DNA from: an uncultured Candidatus Saccharibacteria bacterium
GTDB lineage: Bacteria > Patescibacteriota > Doudnabacteria > UBA920
Reading direction: 5' to 3'
DNA: 36,936 nucleotides
NCBI GenBank assembly: GCA_964523855.1
Contig: CAZGAF010000005.1
Coordinates: forward strand, 3,357 to 40,292
In this document: piece by piece, positions 1,849 through 36,647 of the stretch
How positions within the stretch are numbered: position 1 is the first letter of the stretch
Layout: each line of letters begins with the position of its first letter
Program-made: the position numbers and the translations under genes
The notes under the pieces: generated by a model
The model's input: only the letters and a program-made list of their open reading frames with translations
Database searches by the model: none
What the model was told of the DNA's origin: nothing

Positions 1849-3591
1849 ATGACAAAAAAACAAAAACTGCTTTTTTTAGCAATAATTTTTTTAGCTATTT
1901 TCTTTCGCTTTTACCGCATAGCTGAAATGCCCGGCGGCTTATTTCCAGATGAAGCGGCGAATGGTTTAGATATAAATTCAATGCAGAATGGGCATCTACA
2001 GCCCTTCTACGAGCGTGGCAATGGGCGCGTCGCTCTGTTTTTTTACATGTTATGGGGCAGTGTGGAGCTGTTTGGCAAAGGCGCTTGGCAACATCATATT
2101 GTTTCTGCAACGGTTGGAGTTTTGTCGGTGATTTTATGTTTTTTTGTTACCAGAAAACTTTTTTCCCTTAGTTTTAGTCCACTGACCATCGCAACCGAAG
2201 AACTTAAAAAGAGGTTGTATAAAGCTACCAACATAGGACTTTTAGCTGCGTTTTTTATGGCAGTTTCTTCTTGGTATGTGGTTTTGTCCAGAACTGCTTT
2301 TAGGGCTAACTTAATACCTCTCTTTGCTACACTGACAATTTACTTACTCTTAAAGACATACGAGGCATATTCTAGTAAAGCCTCGGTAAAAAAAGTATTT
2401 GTGTTTAGTCTGTTAACCGGAGCGGCGTTTGCTTTAGGTTTTTATACATATATTGCCTATAGAATTTTGGTGTTAATTTTAGCCGTAGCCATAGCATGGC
2501 CACTTATGCTTCAGTTAAGAGAAAATGGCTTTCTAAAAACTTTACTAAAGTTTAAAACTGCAATCTTTGGTTTCTTTCTAGCTTTTGTTGTATTTTTTGC
2601 CCCGTTATTTATATATTTTTACACCCACGAAGGATCTTTTGTTGGCAGAAGTGGACAAGTTAGTGTGTTTAACACCGAGTTGAATAAGGGCAATTTACTT
2701 GGAACCGTTGGTACTGTAGCTTACTTGTCAGTTAGGGCTTATTTTATAGATGGTGATTTAAATTGGAGACATAATGTTTCAGGTTATCCATTTTTGTCAG
2801 AAATAATAAGTCCGTTCTTCGCTGTCGGCTTAATAATAATCACTCTTCTTGCGGTTGTTTACATGCTCAAACCGATAGAGAAAAGCCACTTTTGGAAATT
2901 TTTCCTGCTCGCCGGCTGGTTTTGGGGTATGCTTGTACCGGTTATTACTACCGCTGAAGGTATACCTCATGGGCTTAGGGCCATCGGGACGATTCCACCC
3001 GTTTTTATTATTACCGCTTGGGCGGTGTATTGGGTTGGGCATTTTGTATATGAAGCTCATAAAAAAATTTGGCATCGCTGCGAAAAGTGTCACGAAGAGC
3101 ATTACGAAACTTTAGGTAGGGCTTTTAGAAAAAATATTGCCACTTATGCACTTAAATTTTTAGCTGTTTGTTTTTTTGTAAGTTTAATTTCCCAAACCTA
3201 TATTGCTTACTTTATTTACGCTTACAATAGCCCGGAAAATTTCTATGCATTTAGGTCCGACTTAACTCCGGTGGCTAACTATTTAAAACAAAGATGCATA
3301 AAAGACAGTACGTATTTGGTCTTAGATAAATTTTCAGTTCAAACAACGGACTATACGACAAGTAACGAAAAAGGTGACTTTTCGAATGCCTGCTCTGTCC
3401 CCTACAAGCAAGTCGACCCCGAAGATTCTTGGAAACTTTCAGGTTTACAGTTTGGAGACGAAATTGTTTTTACTCAATCCTCTATATTTGATATTAAAAA
3501 ATTTAAAGCCTTTCACCCCAATACTCGTTTGGTTTATGAAGCTAGAAATAAGTTTGGTCAAGCGGTGGTTGCGGTTTATCGAGTTGAGTAA
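1849..3591 (+). CDS. GT-C fold glycosyltransferase, ArnT/PMT (family 39/83)-like
   Basis: 580 aa and multi-TM. The N-terminal 'FYRIAEMPGGLFPDEAANGLD' matches the first-loop D/E motif typical of ArnT/PMT_2 enzymes. A large C-terminal soluble domain follows. Confidence 0.75.
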   Translation: MTKKQKLLFLAIIFLAIFFRFYRIAEMPGGLFPDEAANGLDINSMQNGHLQPFYERGNGRVALFFYMLWGSVELFGKGAWQHHIVSATVGVLSVILCFFVTRKLFSLSFSPLTIATEELKKRLYKATNIGLLAAFFMAVSSWYVVLSRTAFRANLIPLFATLTIYLLLKTYEAYSSKASVKKVFVFSLLTGAAFALGFYTYIAYRILVLILAVAIAWPLMLQLRENGFLKTLLKFKTAIFGFFLAFVVFFAPLFIYFYTHEGSFVGRSGQVSVFNTELNKGNLLGTVGTVAYLSVRAYFIDGDLNWRHNVSGYPFLSEIISPFFAVGLIIITLLAVVYMLKPIEKSHFWKFFLLAGWFWGMLVPVITTAEGIPHGLRAIGTIPPVFIITAWAVYWVGHFVYEAHKKIWHRCEKCHEEHYETLGRAFRKNIATYALKFLAVCFFVSLISQTYIAYFIYAYNSPENFYAFRSDLTPVANYLKQRCIKDSTYLVLDKFSVQTTDYTTSNEKGDFSNACSVPYKQVDPEDSWKLSGLQFGDEIVFTQSSIFDIKKFKAFHPNTRLVYEARNKFGQAVVAVYRVE

Positions 3592-27218: not shown

Positions 27219-27295
27219 TGGTAGCGGAGGGTGGAATTGCACCACCGACCTTGGGCTTATGAGTCCCACGCTCTAACTAACTGAGCTACTCCGCC
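27219..27295 (-). tRNA. tRNA with CAU anticodon (elongator Met or Ile2), CCA encoded, non-canonical T-loop
   Basis: GGCGGAG TA GCTC AGTTAGTTA GAGC G TGGGA CTCATAA GCCCA AGGTC GGTGG TGCAATT CCACC CTCCGCT A CCA. It has a G1:U72 wobble, an A31/G39 mismatch and the T-loop UGCAAUU (G at position 55). Confidence 0.8.
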
Positions 27296-27607: not shown

Positions 27608-27853
27608 TTAAGATTTTATCACACTTTTTAAAAATGCGCGTCCTTTACCCGTTTTAAAAAACTTTTCTCGCTTTAACGCATCGGTTCGCGTTTCAAACTT
27701 TTCAAAATATACCAACTCCCAAGGCCCCTTACCCTTTGTATAGTATGGTTACCAACTCTCACCTTTATGTTGATCAATTCTAAAGGACAAATAACGAGTT
27801 GACCCTTTATACAAAATCCCTTCGGGATTTTTTAAAATATATACGTAATACAT
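27608..27853 (-). pseudogene. GIY-YIG nuclease-domain ORF (about 81 codons) interrupted by one in-frame TAA
   Basis: It is invisible in the ORF track because both pieces are under 60 aa. Manual translation gives MYYVYILKNPEGILYKGSTRYLSFRIDQHKGESW*PYYTKGKGPWELVYFEKFETRTDALKREKFFKTGKGRAFLKSVIKS*. This shows the GIY (YVYIL), YIG (LYKGST), R and E (ALKREK) pattern of small URI-domain proteins. The internal TAA is at 27749-27751. Confidence 0.75.
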
Positions 27854-27903
27854 AGGGCAACCAAGAGAAAACTCCAATTATAATTTATATTGAAGGGCTC
27901 GCT

Positions 27904-27979
27904 TGGTTGCGGGACCCGGACTCGAACCGGGAACCTTCAGGTTATGAGCCTGACGAGCTGCCAATTGCTCTATCCCGCG
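27904..27979 (-). tRNA. Initiator tRNA-fMet (CAU), CCA encoded
   Basis: CGCGGGA TA GAGC AATTGGCA GCTC G TCAGG CTCATAA CCTGA AGGTT CCCGG TTCGAGT CCGGG TCCCGCA A CCA. The C1/A72 mismatch and the A11:U24 pair are bacterial initiator hallmarks. Only two of the three usual G:C pairs are present at the bottom of the anticodon stem. Confidence 0.85.
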
Positions 27980-28330: not shown

Positions 28331-29047
28331 TTATCGTGTTTTAAAAAATTTGTCAAGATTTTTTTCGTCAATTAAACACTTCAACAACTTTTTTTTCTGT
28401 GTTGAATTTTTTAACTTATCTACTTCACTTAAAATTTTATTTCTGCTTAAAGTTCCCAAACAAGAAAATTTATTTTTTATTGCTAAGTAGCTTTCTGTTT
28501 CGATTTTAAAATCTAATTCTAAAGCAAACCTAAAAGCTCTAACAATTCTTAACGGATCTTCTATAATTCTTTTTTTCGGCTCACCAACAAATTTAATTTG
28601 TTTCTTTTTTAAATCTTCTATTCCGCCATGAAAGTCCAAAACTTTACCGTCTTTTAAGCTTAAATATAAGGAGTTTATGGTAAAATCTCTTCTTTCGCTG
28701 TCTTTTTTTACGTCAGTAATAAATACAGTTTTAGGGTAACGAGATGTACCATAGACTTCTTTTCTAAAAGTAGCAACAGCAACAGCTTCGGTATCTTTTA
28801 AAGCAATTATAATACCAAGGTTTTTATAGGTTTGGTTAAAATCCAAATAATGTTTTTTTAAAATTTCTGCCACTGCTTCCGGCTTTGCGCTAGTTGCGAT
28901 GTCTATGTCTTTTGGTGTGCGGCTTAAAAGTATATCGCGCACTGTACCGCCAACGAAAAAAGTTTGCTTGAAGTTTTCCACAAGCAAACTATATATTTCG
29001 CAACCAAACTTTTCCATTTCAGAAGATGGCTGATATTTAAATTTCAT
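28331..29047 (-). CDS. Short tRNA nucleotidyltransferase / poly(A) polymerase family protein (CCA-adding-type head and neck only)
   Basis: 238 aa. Motifs are 'FFVGGTVRDILLSRTPKDIDIAT' (GGxVRD..DxD), 'ERRDFTINSLY' and 'EDPLRIVRAFRFALEL'. The body/tail region of full-length class II enzymes is missing. It starts 10 nt after the atpC stop. Confidence 0.75.
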   Translation of the reverse strand: MKFKYQPSSEMEKFGCEIYSLLVENFKQTFFVGGTVRDILLSRTPKDIDIATSAKPEAVAEILKKHYLDFNQTYKNLGIIIALKDTEAVAVATFRKEVYGTSRYPKTVFITDVKKDSERRDFTINSLYLSLKDGKVLDFHGGIEDLKKKQIKFVGEPKKRIIEDPLRIVRAFRFALELDFKIETESYLAIKNKFSCLGTLSRNKILSEVDKLKNSTQKKKLLKCLIDEKNLDKFFKTR

Positions 29048-29057
29048 GCTAAATAAA

Positions 29058-29510
29058 TTATTCTTCTAGCACACCTTCGGAAGTAATAGGATTTTTTCGG
29101 CGTGATTTTTTTCGAGCAATATTTAACCTGGCCAAACTTCTTTCCAAAGCAGCCGCAACCTTTGCATACTCTTCTTGGTTTGCTCTAACTTCTTTCATCG
29201 CAACCTCCGCGCGCTTTTTTGCTTCCTCGGCACGCTTTAAGTCTATTTCAAAGGAGTGCTCCGCCGCATCTGCCAACACAACAACTTTGCTCTGTGCTTG
29301 AATCTGCACAAACCCGCCGGCAACATTTAACAAATATTCTTCGTCCTTGGTTTTAGCTTTCATTTCACCCGGAACTAAAGTGGCAACCAAGGGCTCATGG
29401 TTAGGCAAAATAGTTATTTGTCCCATAGAAGTTGGGCAAGTCAAACTCAACAATTCCATATCCAGAACTGTTTTTTCAGGAGTTACTAATTTGAAGTTGA
29501 TTAAGTTCAT
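29058..29510 (-). CDS. atpC: F1 ATP synthase subunit epsilon
   Basis: 150 aa. 'FKLVTPEKTVLDMELLSLTCPTSMGQITILPNHEPLVATLVPGEM' is the beta-sandwich, followed by the C-terminal helical hairpin. Confidence 0.9.
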   Translation of the reverse strand: MNLINFKLVTPEKTVLDMELLSLTCPTSMGQITILPNHEPLVATLVPGEMKAKTKDEEYLLNVAGGFVQIQAQSKVVVLADAAEHSFEIDLKRAEEAKKRAEVAMKEVRANQEEYAKVAAALERSLARLNIARKKSRRKNPITSEGVLEE

Positions 29511-29564: not shown

Positions 29565-30956
<1,392 letters not shown>

Positions 30957-31060
30957 TCAGATATATGCAGACAGTACAGATAATGTCGATACCACAAATG
31001 TTTTCACATCTGCATTATCGGTATCATCGGTATTTTATCCGCTGATCTGTATCTTACTTA

Positions 31061-31945
31061 TTATTCTAAAGCGATTTTGCCGGATGTAATTTCGGCAAGT
31101 TCGGTTGTTATCTTATTTTGTCTTAATTGGTTAAAGGTAAGAGTCAGGTCAGAAATCAAATCCCCAGCCGCTTCTGTTGCATTTTTCATCATTATCATTC
31201 TTGCGCTATGTTCGCCAGCTTCTGCTTCCAACACCGCTTGGTAAATTTGACTTTCTAGAATTCTCGGAACCAAATGGTTAAGTACTTCATCTAAACCCGG
31301 TTCAAAAACATAGTCTATGTCGTTGGCTGTTGGAGCATTATCTGTATCTTCCAGTTCTTTAAGTAATTCGTCAGAGAAAGGCAAAAGTTGTTTTAAAACC
31401 GGCTTTTGACTTAGGGTGGAATTAAAAAAGTTATAAATTAAATAAAATTTACTATATTCCCCTTTTTCGTAGGCTTCGCTTATAAAATGCGACAAAGGAT
31501 AAATGTCTTCGATTTTAGGACTTTTCTCTACTTTTTGGAAATCTGCTGTTATAGCTTTACCAATTCTGCTAGCCAGTATCTGTCCCTTTTTTCCGTAAGT
31601 TATAAGCTCAATCTCGCCTTTCTCGCCCGCTTCGGCCAAAACCTGCTTTAAGGAATATAAAAGGTTAGCATTTAAACTTCCTACCAAACCTTTGTTAGAG
31701 GAAATTAGCATTACGCCAACTTTTTTTGCTTCCGGATAAGCTTTTAACAGCGGGTGGCTAAATGGTCCTTTGCGGCTTAAATTCTTTATGATCTCCCAAG
31801 CCATTTCAGAGTAACTACGGGACGAGACGGTAGCGTTTTGCGCACGCTTCATTTTTGCCGCAGAAACCATTTGCATAGCACGCGTAATCTTTCTTGTACC
31901 TCTTATGCTTTTTATTCGAATTTTTAATTCTTTAATTCCTGCCAT
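31061..31945 (-). CDS. atpG: F1 ATP synthase subunit gamma
   Basis: 294 aa. The N-terminal 'IKELKIRIKSIRGTRKITRAMQMVSAAKMKRAQ' and the C-terminal 'LTLTFNQLRQNKITTELAEITSG' are both typical of gamma. Confidence 0.95.
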   Translation of the reverse strand: MAGIKELKIRIKSIRGTRKITRAMQMVSAAKMKRAQNATVSSRSYSEMAWEIIKNLSRKGPFSHPLLKAYPEAKKVGVMLISSNKGLVGSLNANLLYSLKQVLAEAGEKGEIELITYGKKGQILASRIGKAITADFQKVEKSPKIEDIYPLSHFISEAYEKGEYSKFYLIYNFFNSTLSQKPVLKQLLPFSDELLKELEDTDNAPTANDIDYVFEPGLDEVLNHLVPRILESQIYQAVLEAEAGEHSARMIMMKNATEAAGDLISDLTLTFNQLRQNKITTELAEITSGKIALE

Positions 31946-31946
31946 A

Positions 31947-32408
31947 TTATTTTTTTACAGAATCTGGGTTGATTATTATTAAATCTGCGCTTTTTATACT
32001 TGAATTAGAAATGTGCTCTACTAAGTTCGGATTATAAATATAAACGTATAAGTCCGGGTTTAAACCTTTCCTTGCTGCCATACTCGTCAGCATTTCTACA
32101 GTTGTTACTTCTTCAACCAATAAGTACTTCTGTGGGTATTGTTGTAACTCCGTAACTCTTTGCAAACCAACGACCGAAGTAATTTCCGGTTTTATACTTT
32201 CTCTGTTTCCCAACTCACTTTGAAACCTGTTTCTTAACTCGCTTTTTCCAGCATTAGGTTCGCCCGTTATAACAATTAAAACCATTCCGCCTTTTTCTGT
32301 GTATTTTTTTTCGGCTATGCTTTTCAAGCGAGCCAGCCCGGACTCCAAACCAGTCTCGGTTTTTTCCGAACTTTGCAGTCGTTCAAAATTTCCAAATTCA
32401 GGAGGCAT
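31947..32408 (-). CDS. Small P-loop NTPase-like protein of unknown function, embedded between atpA and atpG
   Basis: 153 aa. Walker A is 'ITGEPNAGKS' and a possible Walker B is 'KYLLVEEV'. Its start overlaps the atpA stop (TAATG) and its stop is 1 nt from the atpG ATG. Confidence 0.65.
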   Translation of the reverse strand: MPPEFGNFERLQSSEKTETGLESGLARLKSIAEKKYTEKGGMVLIVITGEPNAGKSELRNRFQSELGNRESIKPEITSVVGLQRVTELQQYPQKYLLVEEVTTVEMLTSMAARKGLNPDLYVYIYNPNLVEHISNSSIKSADLIIINPDSVKK

Positions 32409-33907
32409 TATTTTACAGTTTCTACAAAAGCCTTAATTGCTTCTTTTAACTTAGTTTCAGTTTCTTCGCTAATCTCTTTCTTTTCAGCAATCGCCTGCAA
32501 AACTTCTTTAGCGTTAACTTTCATGTGCTGGTGAAAAGCTTTTTCAGTTTCAGCCATTTTTTCTACAGCAATAGAATTTAAGTAGCCGTTAGATACGGCA
32601 TAAATTATAGTCACTTGCTGTTCCAAAGAAAGCGGAGAGTACTGCGGCTGCTTCAAAATTTCAGTCAGTCTTCGGCCAAGCTCAAGCTGATTCTTTGTAT
32701 TTTCGTCTAAGTCAGAGCCGAATTGGGCAAAGGCTTCAAGTTCTCTAAACTGAGCCAAACTAAGCTTTAGCTTACCAGCCACCTTTTTCATAGCTTTAGT
32801 TTGAGCCGCGCTACCTACACGAGACACGGAGATACCAACGTTTAAAGCTGGACGAATACCTTTGTAGAAAAGGTCTGACTCCAAGAATATCTGTCCGTCC
32901 GTAATAGAAATAACATTAGTCGGAATATAGGCAGAAACGTCACCAGCTTGGGTTTCAATAATAGGCAAAGCTGTCAAAGAGCCGCCGCCAAAATTTTTAT
33001 TAAGCTTTGCTGCTCTTTCCAAAAGTCTGGAGTGTAAATAAAATACATCTCCAGGATAAGCTTCGCGTCCCGGCGGTCTTCTTAAAAGCAAAGAAATTTC
33101 TCTATAGGCAACAGCCTGTTTAGATAAATCATCATAGACCACCAAAACATCTTTGCCCTGATCCATAAAGTATTCGCCCATAGCGGTAGCAGCATAAGGA
33201 GCTAAGAAAGACATGGCCGAAGGCTCGGAAGCGGAAGCGGAAACTACAATAGTGTAGTCCATAGCCCCGTTCTCTTTTAAAACTTCGGTAATTTTAGCGA
33301 CCTTGCTTTCTTTTTGTCCGACAGCAACATAAATACAAACCATGTTCTGATTTTTTTGGTTTATAATTGTATCTATAGCCACAGCCGTTTTACCTGTTTG
33401 ACGGTCGCCAATTATAAGTTCACGCTGTCCTCTACCGATTGGAATGAGCGCGTCTATGGCCTTAATGCCGGTTTGTACCGGCTGGTTAACTCCCTGCCTG
33501 GTAATAACGCCAGGCGCAATTTTTTCTACTGGATAAAACTTAGCTGCTTTAATTTCACCTTTACCATCTTTAGCTTCGCCCAATGCACCCACGGTCCTGC
33601 CTATTAAAGATTCACCGACAGGCACAGACAAAATTTTACCGGTAGGTTTTACAACGCTACCCACTTTAATATCGGCAAAATCACCTAGCACAATCGCTCC
33701 AACCTGGTTTTCTTCCAAGTTTAGCGCAACACCCATGGAGCCATTTTCAAACTGAAGCATTTCCATGCTGGCAGCTTCGGTTAAACCAGCTACACGAGCT
33801 ATACCGTCCGCAACTTCCAAAACATACCCAACTTTTTCAACTTTGGCCGAAGGCTCAAAAGCGTTTATCTTACTTTTTAACTGTTCAATTAAATTTGTTT
33901 GCGACAT
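32408..33907 (-). CDS. atpA: F1 ATP synthase subunit alpha
   Basis: 499 aa with the 'GDRQTGKTA' P-loop, '[27 protein letters not shown]' and 'ITDGQIFLE'. Confidence 0.97.
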
Positions 33908-33980: not shown

Positions 33981-34373
33981 CTACTCCTGTAAGCTTTTAC
34001 TTAATTTATTTAGTTGCTCTTTAATGCTGGCATCGACAAGCTTATCGCCAACTCTCATAACTAACCCACCCACCAAGCCTTCATCGACTTTTTTTTGAAT
34101 CTCCAGGTCAGTTTTTACAGCTTTATTTAAACCCTCTACCACTCCAGAACTTAAATTCATTTCACGAGCCGTGCTGACTTCGGCAATTTTTATACCACTC
34201 TCGCCAAGCTTTAGTTCTGTAAGTTCTTTTTCAATTTCAGAATATTTACCAACGTCGCCGTTCTGGGCCAAAATTTTTACAAAGTTATCCAAAACTTTTT
34301 CTTGGTCTCCTGGCTGAGTCTCACTCAAAGCCTCATAAAGACTTTGGGCATATTGTTTAGAAGTATACCTCAT
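33981..34373 (-). CDS. atpH: F1 ATP synthase subunit delta (OSCP), short form
   Basis: 130 aa, which I recall as shorter than the usual bacterial delta. The N-terminal 'YAQSLYEAL' and the C-terminal 'GGLVMRVGDKLVDASIKEQLNKL' are typical of delta. Confidence 0.8.
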   Translation of the reverse strand: MRYTSKQYAQSLYEALSETQPGDQEKVLDNFVKILAQNGDVGKYSEIEKELTELKLGESGIKIAEVSTAREMNLSSGVVEGLNKAVKTDLEIQKKVDEGLVGGLVMRVGDKLVDASIKEQLNKLSKSLQE

Positions 34374-34377
34374 GCTT

Positions 34378-34935
34378 TTATGCTGTTATGCTTTTTACTG
34401 TTTTTTCTATAAGCTCTTTATCCTTTTTATCGGTAATTTTCTCCATTAAAATCTTTTCGGTAGCTGTTGTAACCATGCCAGCAATTTCTCCCTTTGCTTC
34501 CTGAATAGACTTTTTCTTTTCTTCTTCAATTTTATCTTTTGCCTGTCTAACTACCTGCTCTTGCTCTTGTTTAGTTTTTAAAAGCGCCTCTGCTTTTTCT
34601 TTACTCGCTTCATCTTGCGCCAACAAAACTATTTCGGAAGCCTTCTTGTTTGCAGCAGCAACCGCTTCGTTCTTCCACTTCTCGAATTCCTGCTTTTCTT
34701 TTTCTATATCTTCAGCATCCTGCAAAGCTTTTTCGATTTTAAGTCTTCTCTCTTCCAGCTTTTTTCCAACTGGAGTAAACACGTACCTATTTAAAACAAA
34801 TAAAACAATACTAAAATTCAACAACTGGGCCAAAAAAAGCTTCCAGTTAATTCCAAGCGTACCTAAAACCCCGGTTTCAGCTTCGACTGCAGCTGCTTCA
34901 GAAGCCGCGTGAGCAATATGCACAAATTCGATCAT
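34378..34935 (-). CDS. atpF: Fo ATP synthase subunit b
   Basis: 185 aa. One TM helix (WKLFLAQLLNFSIVLFVL) is followed by a long charged helix. Confidence 0.85.
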   Translation of the reverse strand: MIEFVHIAHAASEAAAVEAETGVLGTLGINWKLFLAQLLNFSIVLFVLNRYVFTPVGKKLEERRLKIEKALQDAEDIEKEKQEFEKWKNEAVAAANKKASEIVLLAQDEASKEKAEALLKTKQEQEQVVRQAKDKIEEEKKKSIQEAKGEIAGMVTTATEKILMEKITDKKDKELIEKTVKSITA

Positions 34936-35008: not shown

Positions 35009-35275
<267 letters not shown>

Positions 35276-35356: not shown

Positions 35357-36226
35357 TTAAGCAGCCTTCTGTTCAACTTTATGGCTTTCATGGCCCTCAT
35401 GCTCTTCGTCGTGACCGCCGTGTTCCATTGTTGCCATGTTAAAGTAAACCAAAGTTAACATCGAAAATACTGTAGCTTGAATGAGACCAACCAAAATTTC
35501 CAAGGCTATAAAAGGCAAAGGTACAAAAACAGCAACTAAACCAGCCAACACGGTTAACAAAACCTCTCCGGCAAATACGTTACCGTACAGCCTCAAAGAC
35601 AAGGAAACCATTTTAGCGACTTCCGAGAAAATTTCGATAATTCCAACAAAGAATTCAACAACAGCTGTTAAAATTTTAACCGGGTTTAAAGAAATCACAG
35701 CTTTATACAAATCACCAAGTTTTATAAACTTATTTAAATACTTAAAGAACCCAATAGCTGCAATGCCAAACAAATGAGAGGTAACGACAGCTAAAACAGC
35801 CATAGCCAAAGTCATGTTTAAGTCTGTATTACTGGGTCTGAGTAATGGCAACATATGAACTTCTCCATGGTGGAGTCCCCACATATATATAGAACCCGTA
35901 CCCGGCATAAGCCCCAGCCAGTTTGCAAATAAAATAAAGAAAAAGAAACCACCAATAAAAGGCAAAAACTTTAAAGATTTTTTTCTATCGCCAGTTACCT
36001 GGTCCAAATAACCAAACATATACTCAACCAAAAATTCAAAAAAGTTTAAAAAACCTTTAGGTGCAATATTTTTTGTATAATACTTTTTAATTCCTCGCTG
36101 AATAAAAAACGCCACAACTATAAAAACAATAGTTGCTAAAGTGGTGTTTACATAAGAATTAGTAATTGGCAAACCTCCAATATAAAATAAGGTTTCAGCC
36201 TGAAGTGGGGGTAGTGCTAGTAACAT
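35357..36226 (-). CDS. atpB: Fo ATP synthase subunit a
   Basis: 289 aa. 'LSLRLYGNVFAGEVLL' carries the essential Arg. A His/Glu-rich C-terminal tail (MEHGGHDEEHEGHESH) is present. Confidence 0.93.
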   Translation of the reverse strand: MLLALPPLQAETLFYIGGLPITNSYVNTTLATIVFIVVAFFIQRGIKKYYTKNIAPKGFLNFFEFLVEYMFGYLDQVTGDRKKSLKFLPFIGGFFFFILFANWLGLMPGTGSIYMWGLHHGEVHMLPLLRPSNTDLNMTLAMAVLAVVTSHLFGIAAIGFFKYLNKFIKLGDLYKAVISLNPVKILTAVVEFFVGIIEIFSEVAKMVSLSLRLYGNVFAGEVLLTVLAGLVAVFVPLPFIALEILVGLIQATVFSMLTLVYFNMATMEHGGHDEEHEGHESHKVEQKAA

Positions 36227-36571
36227 TTACTTTTTTTTAATTAATTCTGAGAGCTTCTTTATCTGTTTGGCTATAGCTAGACTACTGACCATAATTGCCA
36301 ACAATAAGCCAATAATAACAAAAAACTTTTGATCATACTTCTGGTCAAACCATCTACCTAAAAGAACAAAGCCAACAAGGGGCAAGGCTAAAATTAAAGC
36401 AAAATCTATAGCAACACTAAACATAGACATTGCATTTAAAAGCTTAGGTCCGGGATTTTTTACTCCCACAGCCTTTGCTTCTTTAAGCTCGGCTTGCTCT
36501 TTGTGCAGCTGGTCCAAACTCATTCGACCGGGGACTTGGTAATTAGGATTTTCTAAGTCTTCGTTAGCCAT
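36227..36571 (-). CDS. AtpZ/AtpI-like small membrane protein (ATPase_gene1 family)
   Basis: 114 aa with two TM helices ('LILALPLVGFVLLGRWFDQKYDQKFFVIIGLLLAIMVS'). It is the first gene of the atp operon, with a 0-nt gap to atpB. Confidence 0.65.
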   Translation of the reverse strand: MANEDLENPNYQVPGRMSLDQLHKEQAELKEAKAVGVKNPGPKLLNAMSMFSVAIDFALILALPLVGFVLLGRWFDQKYDQKFFVIIGLLLAIMVSSLAIAKQIKKLSELIKKK

Positions 36572-36618: not shown

Positions 36619-36647
36619 ATTTTACAAAGAAGTGTGAGGAGTGTCAA
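36619..36647 (-). promoter_or_regulatory. Candidate sigma70 promoter of the atp operon
   Basis: On the minus strand: TTGACA (36647-36642), a 17-nt spacer, then TAAAAT (36624-36619). It lies about 48 nt upstream of the atpZ-like ATG. Confidence 0.6.

Follow-up and report, generated by a model that had tools for sequence, protein, structure and literature searches.

A conserved orphan P-loop gene at the atpA-atpG junction of a patescibacterial ATP synthase operon, perhaps a hitch-hiker at a recurrent landing site for small genes

The window analyzed here, meaning the whole stretch of 36,936 nt of contig CAZGAF010000005.1, carries an ATP synthase operon in which a 153-aa open reading frame (ORF), named ORF-X or simply X, is located between atpA and atpG. 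X is under purifying selection and is a genuine protein-coding gene, and we lean, with some reservation, towards the reading that it encodes an orphan minimal P-loop nucleoside triphosphatase (NTPase) that is expressed by hitch-hiking on the atp mRNA. We consider X more likely to be a hitch-hiker of the operon than a new part of the ATP synthase because the junction that it occupies collects unrelated genes in related genomes. The placement of X given in the original prediction, which was made from the sequence of the window alone, agrees with the sequence: the 153-aa ORF overlaps the end of atpA by a TAATG and stops 1 nt before the ATG of atpG. The elements of this junction are as follows.

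31947..32408 including the stop codon, minus strand: ORF-X, orphan minimal P-loop protein of 153 aa (ORF listing, homologs, ratio of nonsynonymous to synonymous substitution rates (dN/dS), AlphaFold model)
32408..33907, minus strand: atpA (F1 alpha), 499 aa, 91% identical to the gene of the related locus L001, which has the Pfam ATP-synt_ab domains
31061..31945, minus strand: atpG (F1 gamma), 294 aa, 88% identical to the L001 gene, which has the Pfam ATP-synt domain
32406..32410, minus strand: TAATG overlap of the atpA stop and the X start, in which TAA (32410-32408) and ATG (32408-32406) share one base
31943..31949, minus strand: TAA-T-ATG junction of X and atpG, with the X stop at 31949-31947, a single T at 31946 and the atpG ATG at 31945-31943

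The longest spurious ORF in the operon region has 99 aa in the ORF listing, so the 153 aa of X are more than chance would provide. About 18 homologs of X were found among roughly 15 billion proteins. Four X-family proteins came from a word-indexed search of 5.8 billion protein clusters and 11 homologs from an exhaustive HMMER search of 1.84 billion cluster representatives, while P0014, P0015/P0016 and P0018 (36% identical, on a 12.6-kb contig) were added by profile searches. A scan of a genome collection for more X loci returned only the known Doudnabacteria contig, and a scan of Joint Genome Institute (JGI) metagenomes returned none. Every homolog has a length of 149-164 aa, with no frameshift and no internal stop. 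Between the window and the close relative L003, X has 86% amino-acid identity with a dN of 0.081, a dS of 0.26 and a dN/dS of 0.31, whereas atpG of the same pair has 98% identity, a dN of 0.0089, a dS of 0.32 and a dN/dS of 0.028; at the protein level, X thus changes about nine times as fast as gamma in the same genome pair. Between the window and L001 (58% amino-acid identity), the dN of X is 0.34 and dS is saturated, giving a dN/dS of about 0.08. The original prediction had named coding constraint across relatives as a check on X, and both ratios, together with the unbroken frames, are those of a constrained gene. The GC content of X (0.377) and that of its third codon positions (GC3, 0.344) equal the values of the neighboring genes, and X is therefore not a recent foreign arrival.

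To describe the protein, we used an AlphaFold model calculated with a 13-sequence alignment, which has a mean predicted local distance difference test score (pLDDT) of 83.5 and a predicted template modeling score (pTM) of 0.79. In the model, an N-terminal helix leads into an alpha/beta core with five strands and about 110 residues, arranged in the P-loop-type beta-alpha-beta order. The first elements of the model are a short strand (17-19) and a long helix (21-39), followed by a strand (43-49) leading into the P-loop and the helix 55-66, a strand (76-80) with a short helix, a strand (95-100, containing LLVEE) with a helix, a strand (120-125, YVYIY, followed by NPN) with a helix, and a last strand (143-146, LIII) followed by NPDSVKK and the C-terminus. 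The parts that carry family signatures are located as follows.

32292..32348, minus strand: N-terminal helix, residues 21-39, ahead of the P-loop strand (block pLDDT 92-93; G24 nearly invariant)
32241..32264, minus strand: Walker A or P-loop motif GEPNAGKS, residues 49-56, directly after strand 43-49
32109..32126, minus strand: Walker-B-like strand YLLVEE, residues 95-100, a modeled strand in which E99 is the conserved acidic residue
32025..32036, minus strand: family signature Y-N-P-N, residues 125-128, at the end of strand 4 (Y125, N126 and P127 invariant, archaeal homologs included)
31950..31988, minus strand: C-terminal signature ADLIIINPDSVKK, residues 141-153 (N147 and K153 invariant, D142 nearly invariant)

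Both GEPNAGKS and YLLVEE are present as the original prediction had described them. All aligned homologs, bacterial and archaeal, share G49, P51, G54 and K55 and have S or T at residue 56; with Y125, N126, P127, N147 and K153, these four make up the residues that are invariant in both bacteria and archaea, and G24, D119 and D142 are nearly so. The family motifs can be written as GxPNxGK[ST], D-x-x-x-x-I-Y-N-P-N and D-h-h-h-x-N-P-D-S-x-x-K. The C-terminal motif is also kept in archaeal homologs that do not adjoin atpG, and its conservation therefore acts at the level of the protein and not only of the atpG start region. The second acidic motif is looser: E99 is kept in 11 of the 13 bacterial members and replaced by H or T in the other two, the motif is not recognizable in the archaeal members, and the second acidic position of the EE pair is variable, so the family has no conserved pattern of a catalytic Glu after Walker B. 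By its Walker A motif and the three-layer alpha/beta fold with a parallel sheet seen in the model, X belongs to the P-loop NTPase superfamily, and the description of X as an additional P-loop gene among the F1 genes stands, with the Walker A invariant in homologs and the model of P-loop type. The proposal that the N-terminal 40 aa or so are disordered does not: the model has a helix at 21-39 with a block pLDDT of 92-93, its start residue G24 is nearly invariant even in the archaeal homologs, and pLDDT falls below 50 only in residues 1-5.

As anticipated from the sequence, X could not be assigned to a known family, and none of the Pfam, NCBIfam, PDB, Foldseek, PADLOC and PHROG families takes it in as a member. 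Searches of Pfam, NCBIfam and PDB sequences, whether by the single sequence or by the family profile, gave sub-threshold matches driven by the Walker A motif only. The Pfam scores below cut-off were 17.8 vs 21.9 bits for MMR_HSR1, 15.0 vs 22.3 for Zeta_toxin, 16.6 vs 22 for KTI12 and 13.2 vs 29.4 for AAA_18; other sub-threshold matches were TniB, AAA_22 and, with the single sequence at an E-value of about 0.01, Der/EngA. The family profile matched Der/EngA in the PDB at E-values of 1e-5 to 1e-4 through the stretch G-x-P-N-x-G-K-S-x-L-x-N. A Foldseek comparison of the model with 350,542 PDB chains returned no match at E<=1e-3, the smallest E-value being 1.9e-3 with probabilities up to 1.0, and the top matches were essentially all P-loop NTPases or kinases (MeaB, NSF-D2, the uridine-kinase-like domain of TTM1, PPK2, APS kinase, TsaE/YdiB and UCK2). 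Foldseek against BFVD gave no match at E<=1e-3, and the best PADLOC and PHROG matches (E-values of 0.0011 and 0.00018, respectively) were not significant and came from single members through the P-loop only. We also considered X as a duplicated piece of the nucleotide-binding domain of alpha or beta; hhalign against the alpha and beta subunits of the window aligned 14-42 P-loop columns only (probabilities of 0.2 and 0.6), and X is therefore not a fragment of an F1 subunit.

The order atpA-X-atpG recurs in eight bacterial lineages in which the identity of X to the window copy goes down to 28%, so the survey of relatives for syntenic ORFs that the original prediction had called for did find X homologs between atp genes. 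This comparison covers the homologs other than P0006, P0007, P0010 and P0018. Besides the window, the loci are the following.

L001, Candidatus Doudnabacteria metagenome-assembled genome (MAG) GCA_016788665: X 57% identical to the window, atpA-X-atpG
L002, homolog P0004: X 40% identical, atpA-X-atpG
L003: X 86% identical, visible part X-atpG only
L004, homolog P0005: X 38% identical, the upstream ORF is the atpA C-terminus
L005, homolog P0009: X 28-32% identical, the flanks encode ...KSFLQGIK (then stop) and MPGTKE
L007-L009, homolog P0011, Patescibacteria MAG GCA_023484515: X 28% identical, atpA-X-atpG
L010, homolog P0013: X 29-32% identical, atpA-X-atpG

The atpA/X junction is TAATG in four lineages (window, L002, L003 and L007), TAAATG in L004, TAGATG in L005 and a spacer of 4-5 nt in L001 and L010. 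The X/atpG junction is TAA-T-ATG also in L001 and L003, about 7 nt in L002, 3 nt in L005 and 21 nt in L007, and is a 14-nt overlap in L010. An extension of atpA by readthrough or frameshift is ruled out by the phase between atpA and X, which differs among these relatives (TAATG, TAAATG and 4-5 nt spacers). The syntenic lineages fall on both sides of the deepest split in the bacterial X tree, and therefore the operon-embedded state is probably ancestral for the bacterial members.

This depth of linkage is, together with a relocated copy that still lies beside the operon, the main support for another explanation, namely that X is a lineage-specific accessory factor of the F1Fo enzyme that translational coupling makes next to its partners, either as a nucleotide-dependent chaperone of alpha/gamma assembly or as an ATP/ADP-sensing regulator that gates hydrolysis. 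The retention of atpA-X-atpG across the deepest split of the X tree, the stop/start overlaps or very short spacers at both ends of X, the proximity of the relocated copy (in L096, described below) to the atp operon and the invariant Walker A motif all fit such a factor. In bacteria of the candidate phyla radiation (CPR), the F-type ATPase is usually complete while a full electron transport chain is absent (PMC9166423), and unusual regulation is therefore plausible. We nevertheless regard this explanation as possible but doubtful, from the following observations on the junction itself and on the distribution of X.

To see what occupies the junction in relatives, metagenome contigs were scanned for relatives of the atpG of this clade, which gave 80 loci with gamma subunits 35-63% identical to that of the window. 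A profile search in all six frames found an X-family ORF in none of the 80, where the flanks reach 3.5 kb only and many contigs are short, so X could lie elsewhere in those genomes. The atpA end and the atpG start are both visible in 58 loci; the gap between them is at most 121 nt in 37 of these and 165-1637 nt in the other 21, and the longer gaps contain, for the most part, ORFs on the same strand without a match to the X profile. Several of these ORFs, in loci within L017-L094, have no Pfam family, and the following have one.

L026:708-1103: junction ORF, Pfam 23S_rRNA_IVP; also in L089 and L091, two loci near-identical in sequence
L028:3037-3462: junction ORF, PDDEXK_3 nuclease-fold protein (Pfam)
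L054:1878-3498: junction ORFs, a HicB-HicA pair (Pfam) plus a 323-aa ORF
L038:256-861: junction ORF, GDSL hydrolase (Pfam)

With unrelated ORFs in 21 of 58 loci, the alpha-gamma junction is a place where small genes have landed repeatedly within this Patescibacteria clade. A second recurrent type of junction ORF, 85-105 aa long and with a motif that resembles (R/K)LSEKGR by eye, was noticed at L017:1022-1303, L022:1384-1677, L027:3150-3467 and L083:272-529; the L022 ORF has no Pfam match, and the type may be another junction-resident family.

Such a variety of ORFs, or none, at one junction would also fit a need for a spacer and not for a particular protein. The X frame would then act only in cis, uncoupling or lowering translation between the three-copy alpha and the one-copy gamma, or, in a variant, would be no gene at all. 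However, the amino acids of X are under purifying selection (dN/dS 0.08-0.31), its motifs are invariant across homologs of 28% identity including archaeal copies outside any operon junction, its predicted fold is confident, and 37 of the 58 relatives manage with 121 nt or less between the genes. We find this explanation extremely improbable, and the conservation pattern largely refutes both of its forms.

For the distribution of X, a neighbor-joining host tree was built from concatenated atpA and atpG of 40 loci (784 columns, 200 bootstraps). The X-carrying operons fall into three separate subclades (the window with L001; L002; L007), each mixed with operons whose junctions are empty or otherwise filled; monophyly of all X carriers appears in 0 of the 200 bootstrap replicates, and the single-gene trees agree. 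This means either that X was present early and was then lost or replaced many times, or that it spread in a site-specific manner, and since the carriers are polyphyletic, the ATP synthase does without X in either scenario. The embedding of X in the operon is old, vertically inherited and often lost.

Homologs also occur outside the junction. P0008 (31% identical; MAG GCA_964589415; L096:4026-4487) follows atpD-atpC-cca and lies between two tRNA-Met genes, before tRNA-Asp. The same tRNA-Met/tRNA-Met/tRNA-Asp arrangement is found in the window, with tRNA-Met genes at 27904-27979 and 27219-27295, and the slot between them holds a frameshifted GIY-YIG nuclease gene in two frames (27608-27877, minus strand; the N-terminal part matches PF01541 with 24.1 bits). 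P0012 is followed by a convergent non-atp gene. P0016 (L097/L098:6001-6462) is in a Candidatus Pacearchaeota MAG beside a gene for a TrmB-type regulator, and P0014 (L011:488-970) is in an archaeal context where the next gene encodes an HTH_10 protein; the visible context of both contains no ATPase genes. These two homologs from DPANN archaea carry every family signature, and the X family extends over ultra-small bacteria (CPR/Patescibacteria) and DPANN archaea.

These observations bear on the accessory factor introduced above. A lineage-specific subunit would be present wherever the enzyme of the lineage occurs, but X is absent from all 80 loci, the junction is empty in 37 of the 58 operons, where alpha and gamma are adjacent, and unrelated genes fill the other 21. 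X is polyphyletic on the host tree, so that the enzyme works without it, and the archaeal homologs with all the signatures are far from any ATPase genes. Moreover, X is unlike alpha and beta beyond the P-loop and has no likeness to known assembly or inhibitor proteins, it changes about nine times faster than gamma, and the short delta subunit occurs clade-wide independently of X. The original prediction had offered a function specific to the ATP synthase (an assembly factor, a feeder kinase or a regulator); we found no direct support for it, and the unrelated junction genes in sister lineages, the patchy occurrence of X and the homologs outside atp operons weaken it.

The company that X keeps raises a different possibility, that it is a selfish or conflict cargo gene, such as a toxin-like small kinase or a defense component, kept since excision from an essential operon is risky. 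The same junction holds HicAB, PDDEXK_3 and 23S_rRNA_IVP genes in relatives, the tRNA slot that carries the X homolog in L096 carries the broken GIY-YIG gene in the window, and there is a weak, sub-threshold similarity to the Zeta-toxin/PezT kinases, the N-terminal helix included. However, no antitoxin-like partner gene lies beside X in any locus, the PADLOC and PHROG matches are not significant, the Zeta_toxin score of 15 bits is below the cut-off of 22.3 bits and X has half the size of these kinases, and the long vertical persistence of X, its constraint at the amino-acid level and its host-like composition do not suit such a gene. We judge this possibility to be very unlikely.

Several points also weigh against X as a hitch-hiker. 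In eight lineages, X has stayed exactly between atpA and atpG, with junctions that overlap or are tight, even where its identity is down to 28%, and a functional tie to the ATP synthase would predict such persistent linkage. The sole relocated bacterial copy, in L096, still lies only about 1.2 kb beyond the atp-cca cluster. Typical selfish or defense-type genes make up the other occupants of the junction, and X is not recognizably such a gene. Finally, the host trees are neighbor-joining trees of two proteins, and the number of losses is uncertain.

In the hitch-hiking model that we prefer, an X copy would have lodged in the atpA-atpG junction in the ancestor of one Doudnabacteria-like Patescibacteria clade, and would since have passed down with the operon, with many losses or replacements along the way. 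X would be transcribed on the atp mRNA, the window leaving no room for a promoter of its own, and its translation would rely on termination-reinitiation where TAATG joins it to atpA; its expression would in this way ride on that of the ATP synthase. No Shine-Dalgarno-like sequence was found before X or before the other atp genes inspected, and a promoter and terminator scan in and around X gave nothing above chance. Stoichiometric production of X with the F1 subunits, which had been deduced from the overlap with atpA, does not follow from a stop/start overlap: the products of a single atp mRNA are made in ratios that range from 1 to about 10, and X sits between a three-copy subunit (alpha) and a one-copy subunit (gamma). 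The protein is predicted to bind a nucleoside triphosphate via Lys55 and Ser56 of the Walker A motif and probably hydrolyzes it or transfers its phosphate, with Glu99 on the neighboring strand as a possible ligand of metal or water; the invariant YNPN and NPDSxxK motifs are likely determinants of substrate or partner. X would be an accessory, dispensable gene and not a stoichiometric F1Fo subunit, and its cellular target need not be the ATP synthase.

Apart from X, the operon contains all eight canonical F1Fo subunits. Its minus-strand order is atpI-like, atpB, atpE, atpF, atpH, atpA, X, atpG, atpD and atpC, from the ORF listing and from Pfam assignments for relatives, and the remaining genes are the following.

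36227-36571, minus strand: atpI-like gene (Pfam ATPase_gene1 PF09527, 29.5 bits vs a cut-off of 26.6)
35357-36226, minus strand: atpB (ORF listing)
35009-35245, minus strand: atpE (ORF listing)
34378-34935, minus strand: atpF (ORF listing)
33981-34373, minus strand: atpH (delta/OSCP), short, 130 aa (ORF listing; matches OSCP profile positions 56-172 only)
29565-30941, minus strand: atpD (ORF listing; order as in L001 and L007)
29058-29510, minus strand: atpC (ORF listing; order as in L001 and L007)

The best sigma-70-like site of the region, TTGACA-17-TAAAAT (11/12) at 36619-36647 on the minus strand, lies about 50 nt upstream of the atpI-like gene and is a candidate operon promoter. In the delta subunit of the window, roughly one third of the usual N-terminal domain is missing from its start (the Pfam profile has 172 positions). 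Compensation for this short delta by X was considered and is ruled out, since delta has 127-141 aa throughout the clade (about 35 related loci) with or without X. Directly after atpC, a PolyA_pol-type gene resembling CCA-adding enzymes is found at 28331-29047 on the minus strand, likewise in L001, L007 and L096; its GC content of 0.30 is well under the 0.36-0.43 of the atp genes. The atpG-atpD spacer of the window (30942-31060) has 119 nt and no ORF, and relatives have extra ORFs there (L001:7344-7754, 136 aa; L007:8440-8745, 101 aa; L002:6243-6443, 66 aa) with a mutual likeness of only 32-34% and no Pfam match. L002 also has a 107-aa ORF between atpH and atpA (2974-3297).

Should X turn out to work on the ATP synthase, bacterial F-type ATPases would have their first accessory protein with a P-loop, and X would offer a way into the control of this enzyme in ultra-small symbiotic bacteria whose respiratory chain is incomplete. 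In its full form, with X as a new P-loop accessory subunit or regulator of the F-type ATPase of this Patescibacteria clade that aids F1 assembly or gates hydrolysis by nucleotide state, and with DPANN relatives that have a different or parallel partner, we hold this to be unlikely. An accessory role stays interesting, given that the CPR ATPase works without a full electron transport chain, but the present evidence leans the other way. Even as a hitch-hiker, X defines a tiny, undescribed minimal P-loop family with a core of about 110 residues, which CPR bacteria and DPANN archaea have in common. It is also unexpected that unrelated small genes land repeatedly at the alpha-gamma junction of an operon that is essential and otherwise rigid, and at this junction the function of a gene in these lineages is therefore poorly predicted by operon position alone.

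Among systems that share the atp operon or the junction with X, the known atp-operon extras (atpI/AtpZ-type genes of PF09527, and atpQ/atpR of N-ATPases) resemble it in being non-core genes co-transcribed (presumably so for X) with ATP synthase genes. To our knowledge, atpI/AtpZ, atpQ/atpR, the epsilon and zeta subunits, IF1, Atp11 and Atp12 are small membrane proteins or soluble proteins without a P-loop, and none of them is encoded between atpA and atpG. X matched neither AtpI/AtpZ (PF09527, PF03899) nor the known F1 assembly or inhibitor proteins in Pfam searches, and our literature searches turned up no account of an additional gene at the atpA-atpG junction or in the atp operons of CPR bacteria. 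In sister lineages, the CPR cargo genes (the 23S rRNA-intervening-sequence protein PF05635, PDDEXK_3, GIY-YIG and HicAB) are found at this very atpA-atpG junction or in the tRNA slot next to it, and like X they are on the same strand, compact and patchy in distribution. However, they have no homology to X, which is joined more tightly (an overlap and 1 nt) and has been kept over much deeper divergence.

As for the protein itself, the Era/Der/TrmE-type GTPases (MMR_HSR1, PF01926) are the best sequence matches and are like X in the Walker A region G-x-P-N-x-G-K-S-x-L-x-N. Unlike them, X has neither DxxG (G3) after strand 3 nor NKxD (G4), and has YNPN and NPDS after strands 4 and 5 instead; the hairpin of the GTPases between strands 2 and 3 is a helix in X, and their core has about 170 residues against about 110. 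The P-loop kinases of the uridine kinase/PRK type (APS kinase, PPK2, Zeta toxin) share with the X model the N-terminal helix ahead of the P-loop strand, the order beta1-alpha-beta2-alpha-beta3(hhhhE)-alpha-beta4-alpha-beta5 and an acidic residue that ends strand 3. The uridine-kinase-like domain of TTM1 (7z67) gives the best structural overlap (template modeling (TM) score of 0.57), and 1rz3, UCK2 and APS kinase also match, but X lacks a lid with conserved arginines (it has no conserved Arg between strands 4 and 5) and a substrate-binding subdomain. The minimal ATPases of the TsaE/YjeE type (about 150 aa) are nearly equal to X in size and also have an N-terminal strand and helix ahead of the P-loop, and a further likeness is that they are stand-alone proteins that act on a partner complex. 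B. subtilis YdiB (5mvr) matched the model with a Foldseek probability of 0.93 and a root mean square deviation of 4.8 over 105 columns, at an E-value of 0.04 and a TM-score of 0.35. Weak Pfam TsaE matches occur in only 2 of the 13 X members, and we know of no relation between the TsaE motifs and the YNPN and NPDSxxK signatures of X. In the order of its strands and helices and in its pre-P-loop helix, the modeled X thus resembles the small P-loop kinases and TsaE-like ATPases more closely than the GTPases. As far as the libraries and the literature searched go, neither the family and its motifs nor its very small size and CPR/DPANN distribution have been described, and an orphan, minimal P-loop NTPase family with a known fold class is the most fitting description of X.

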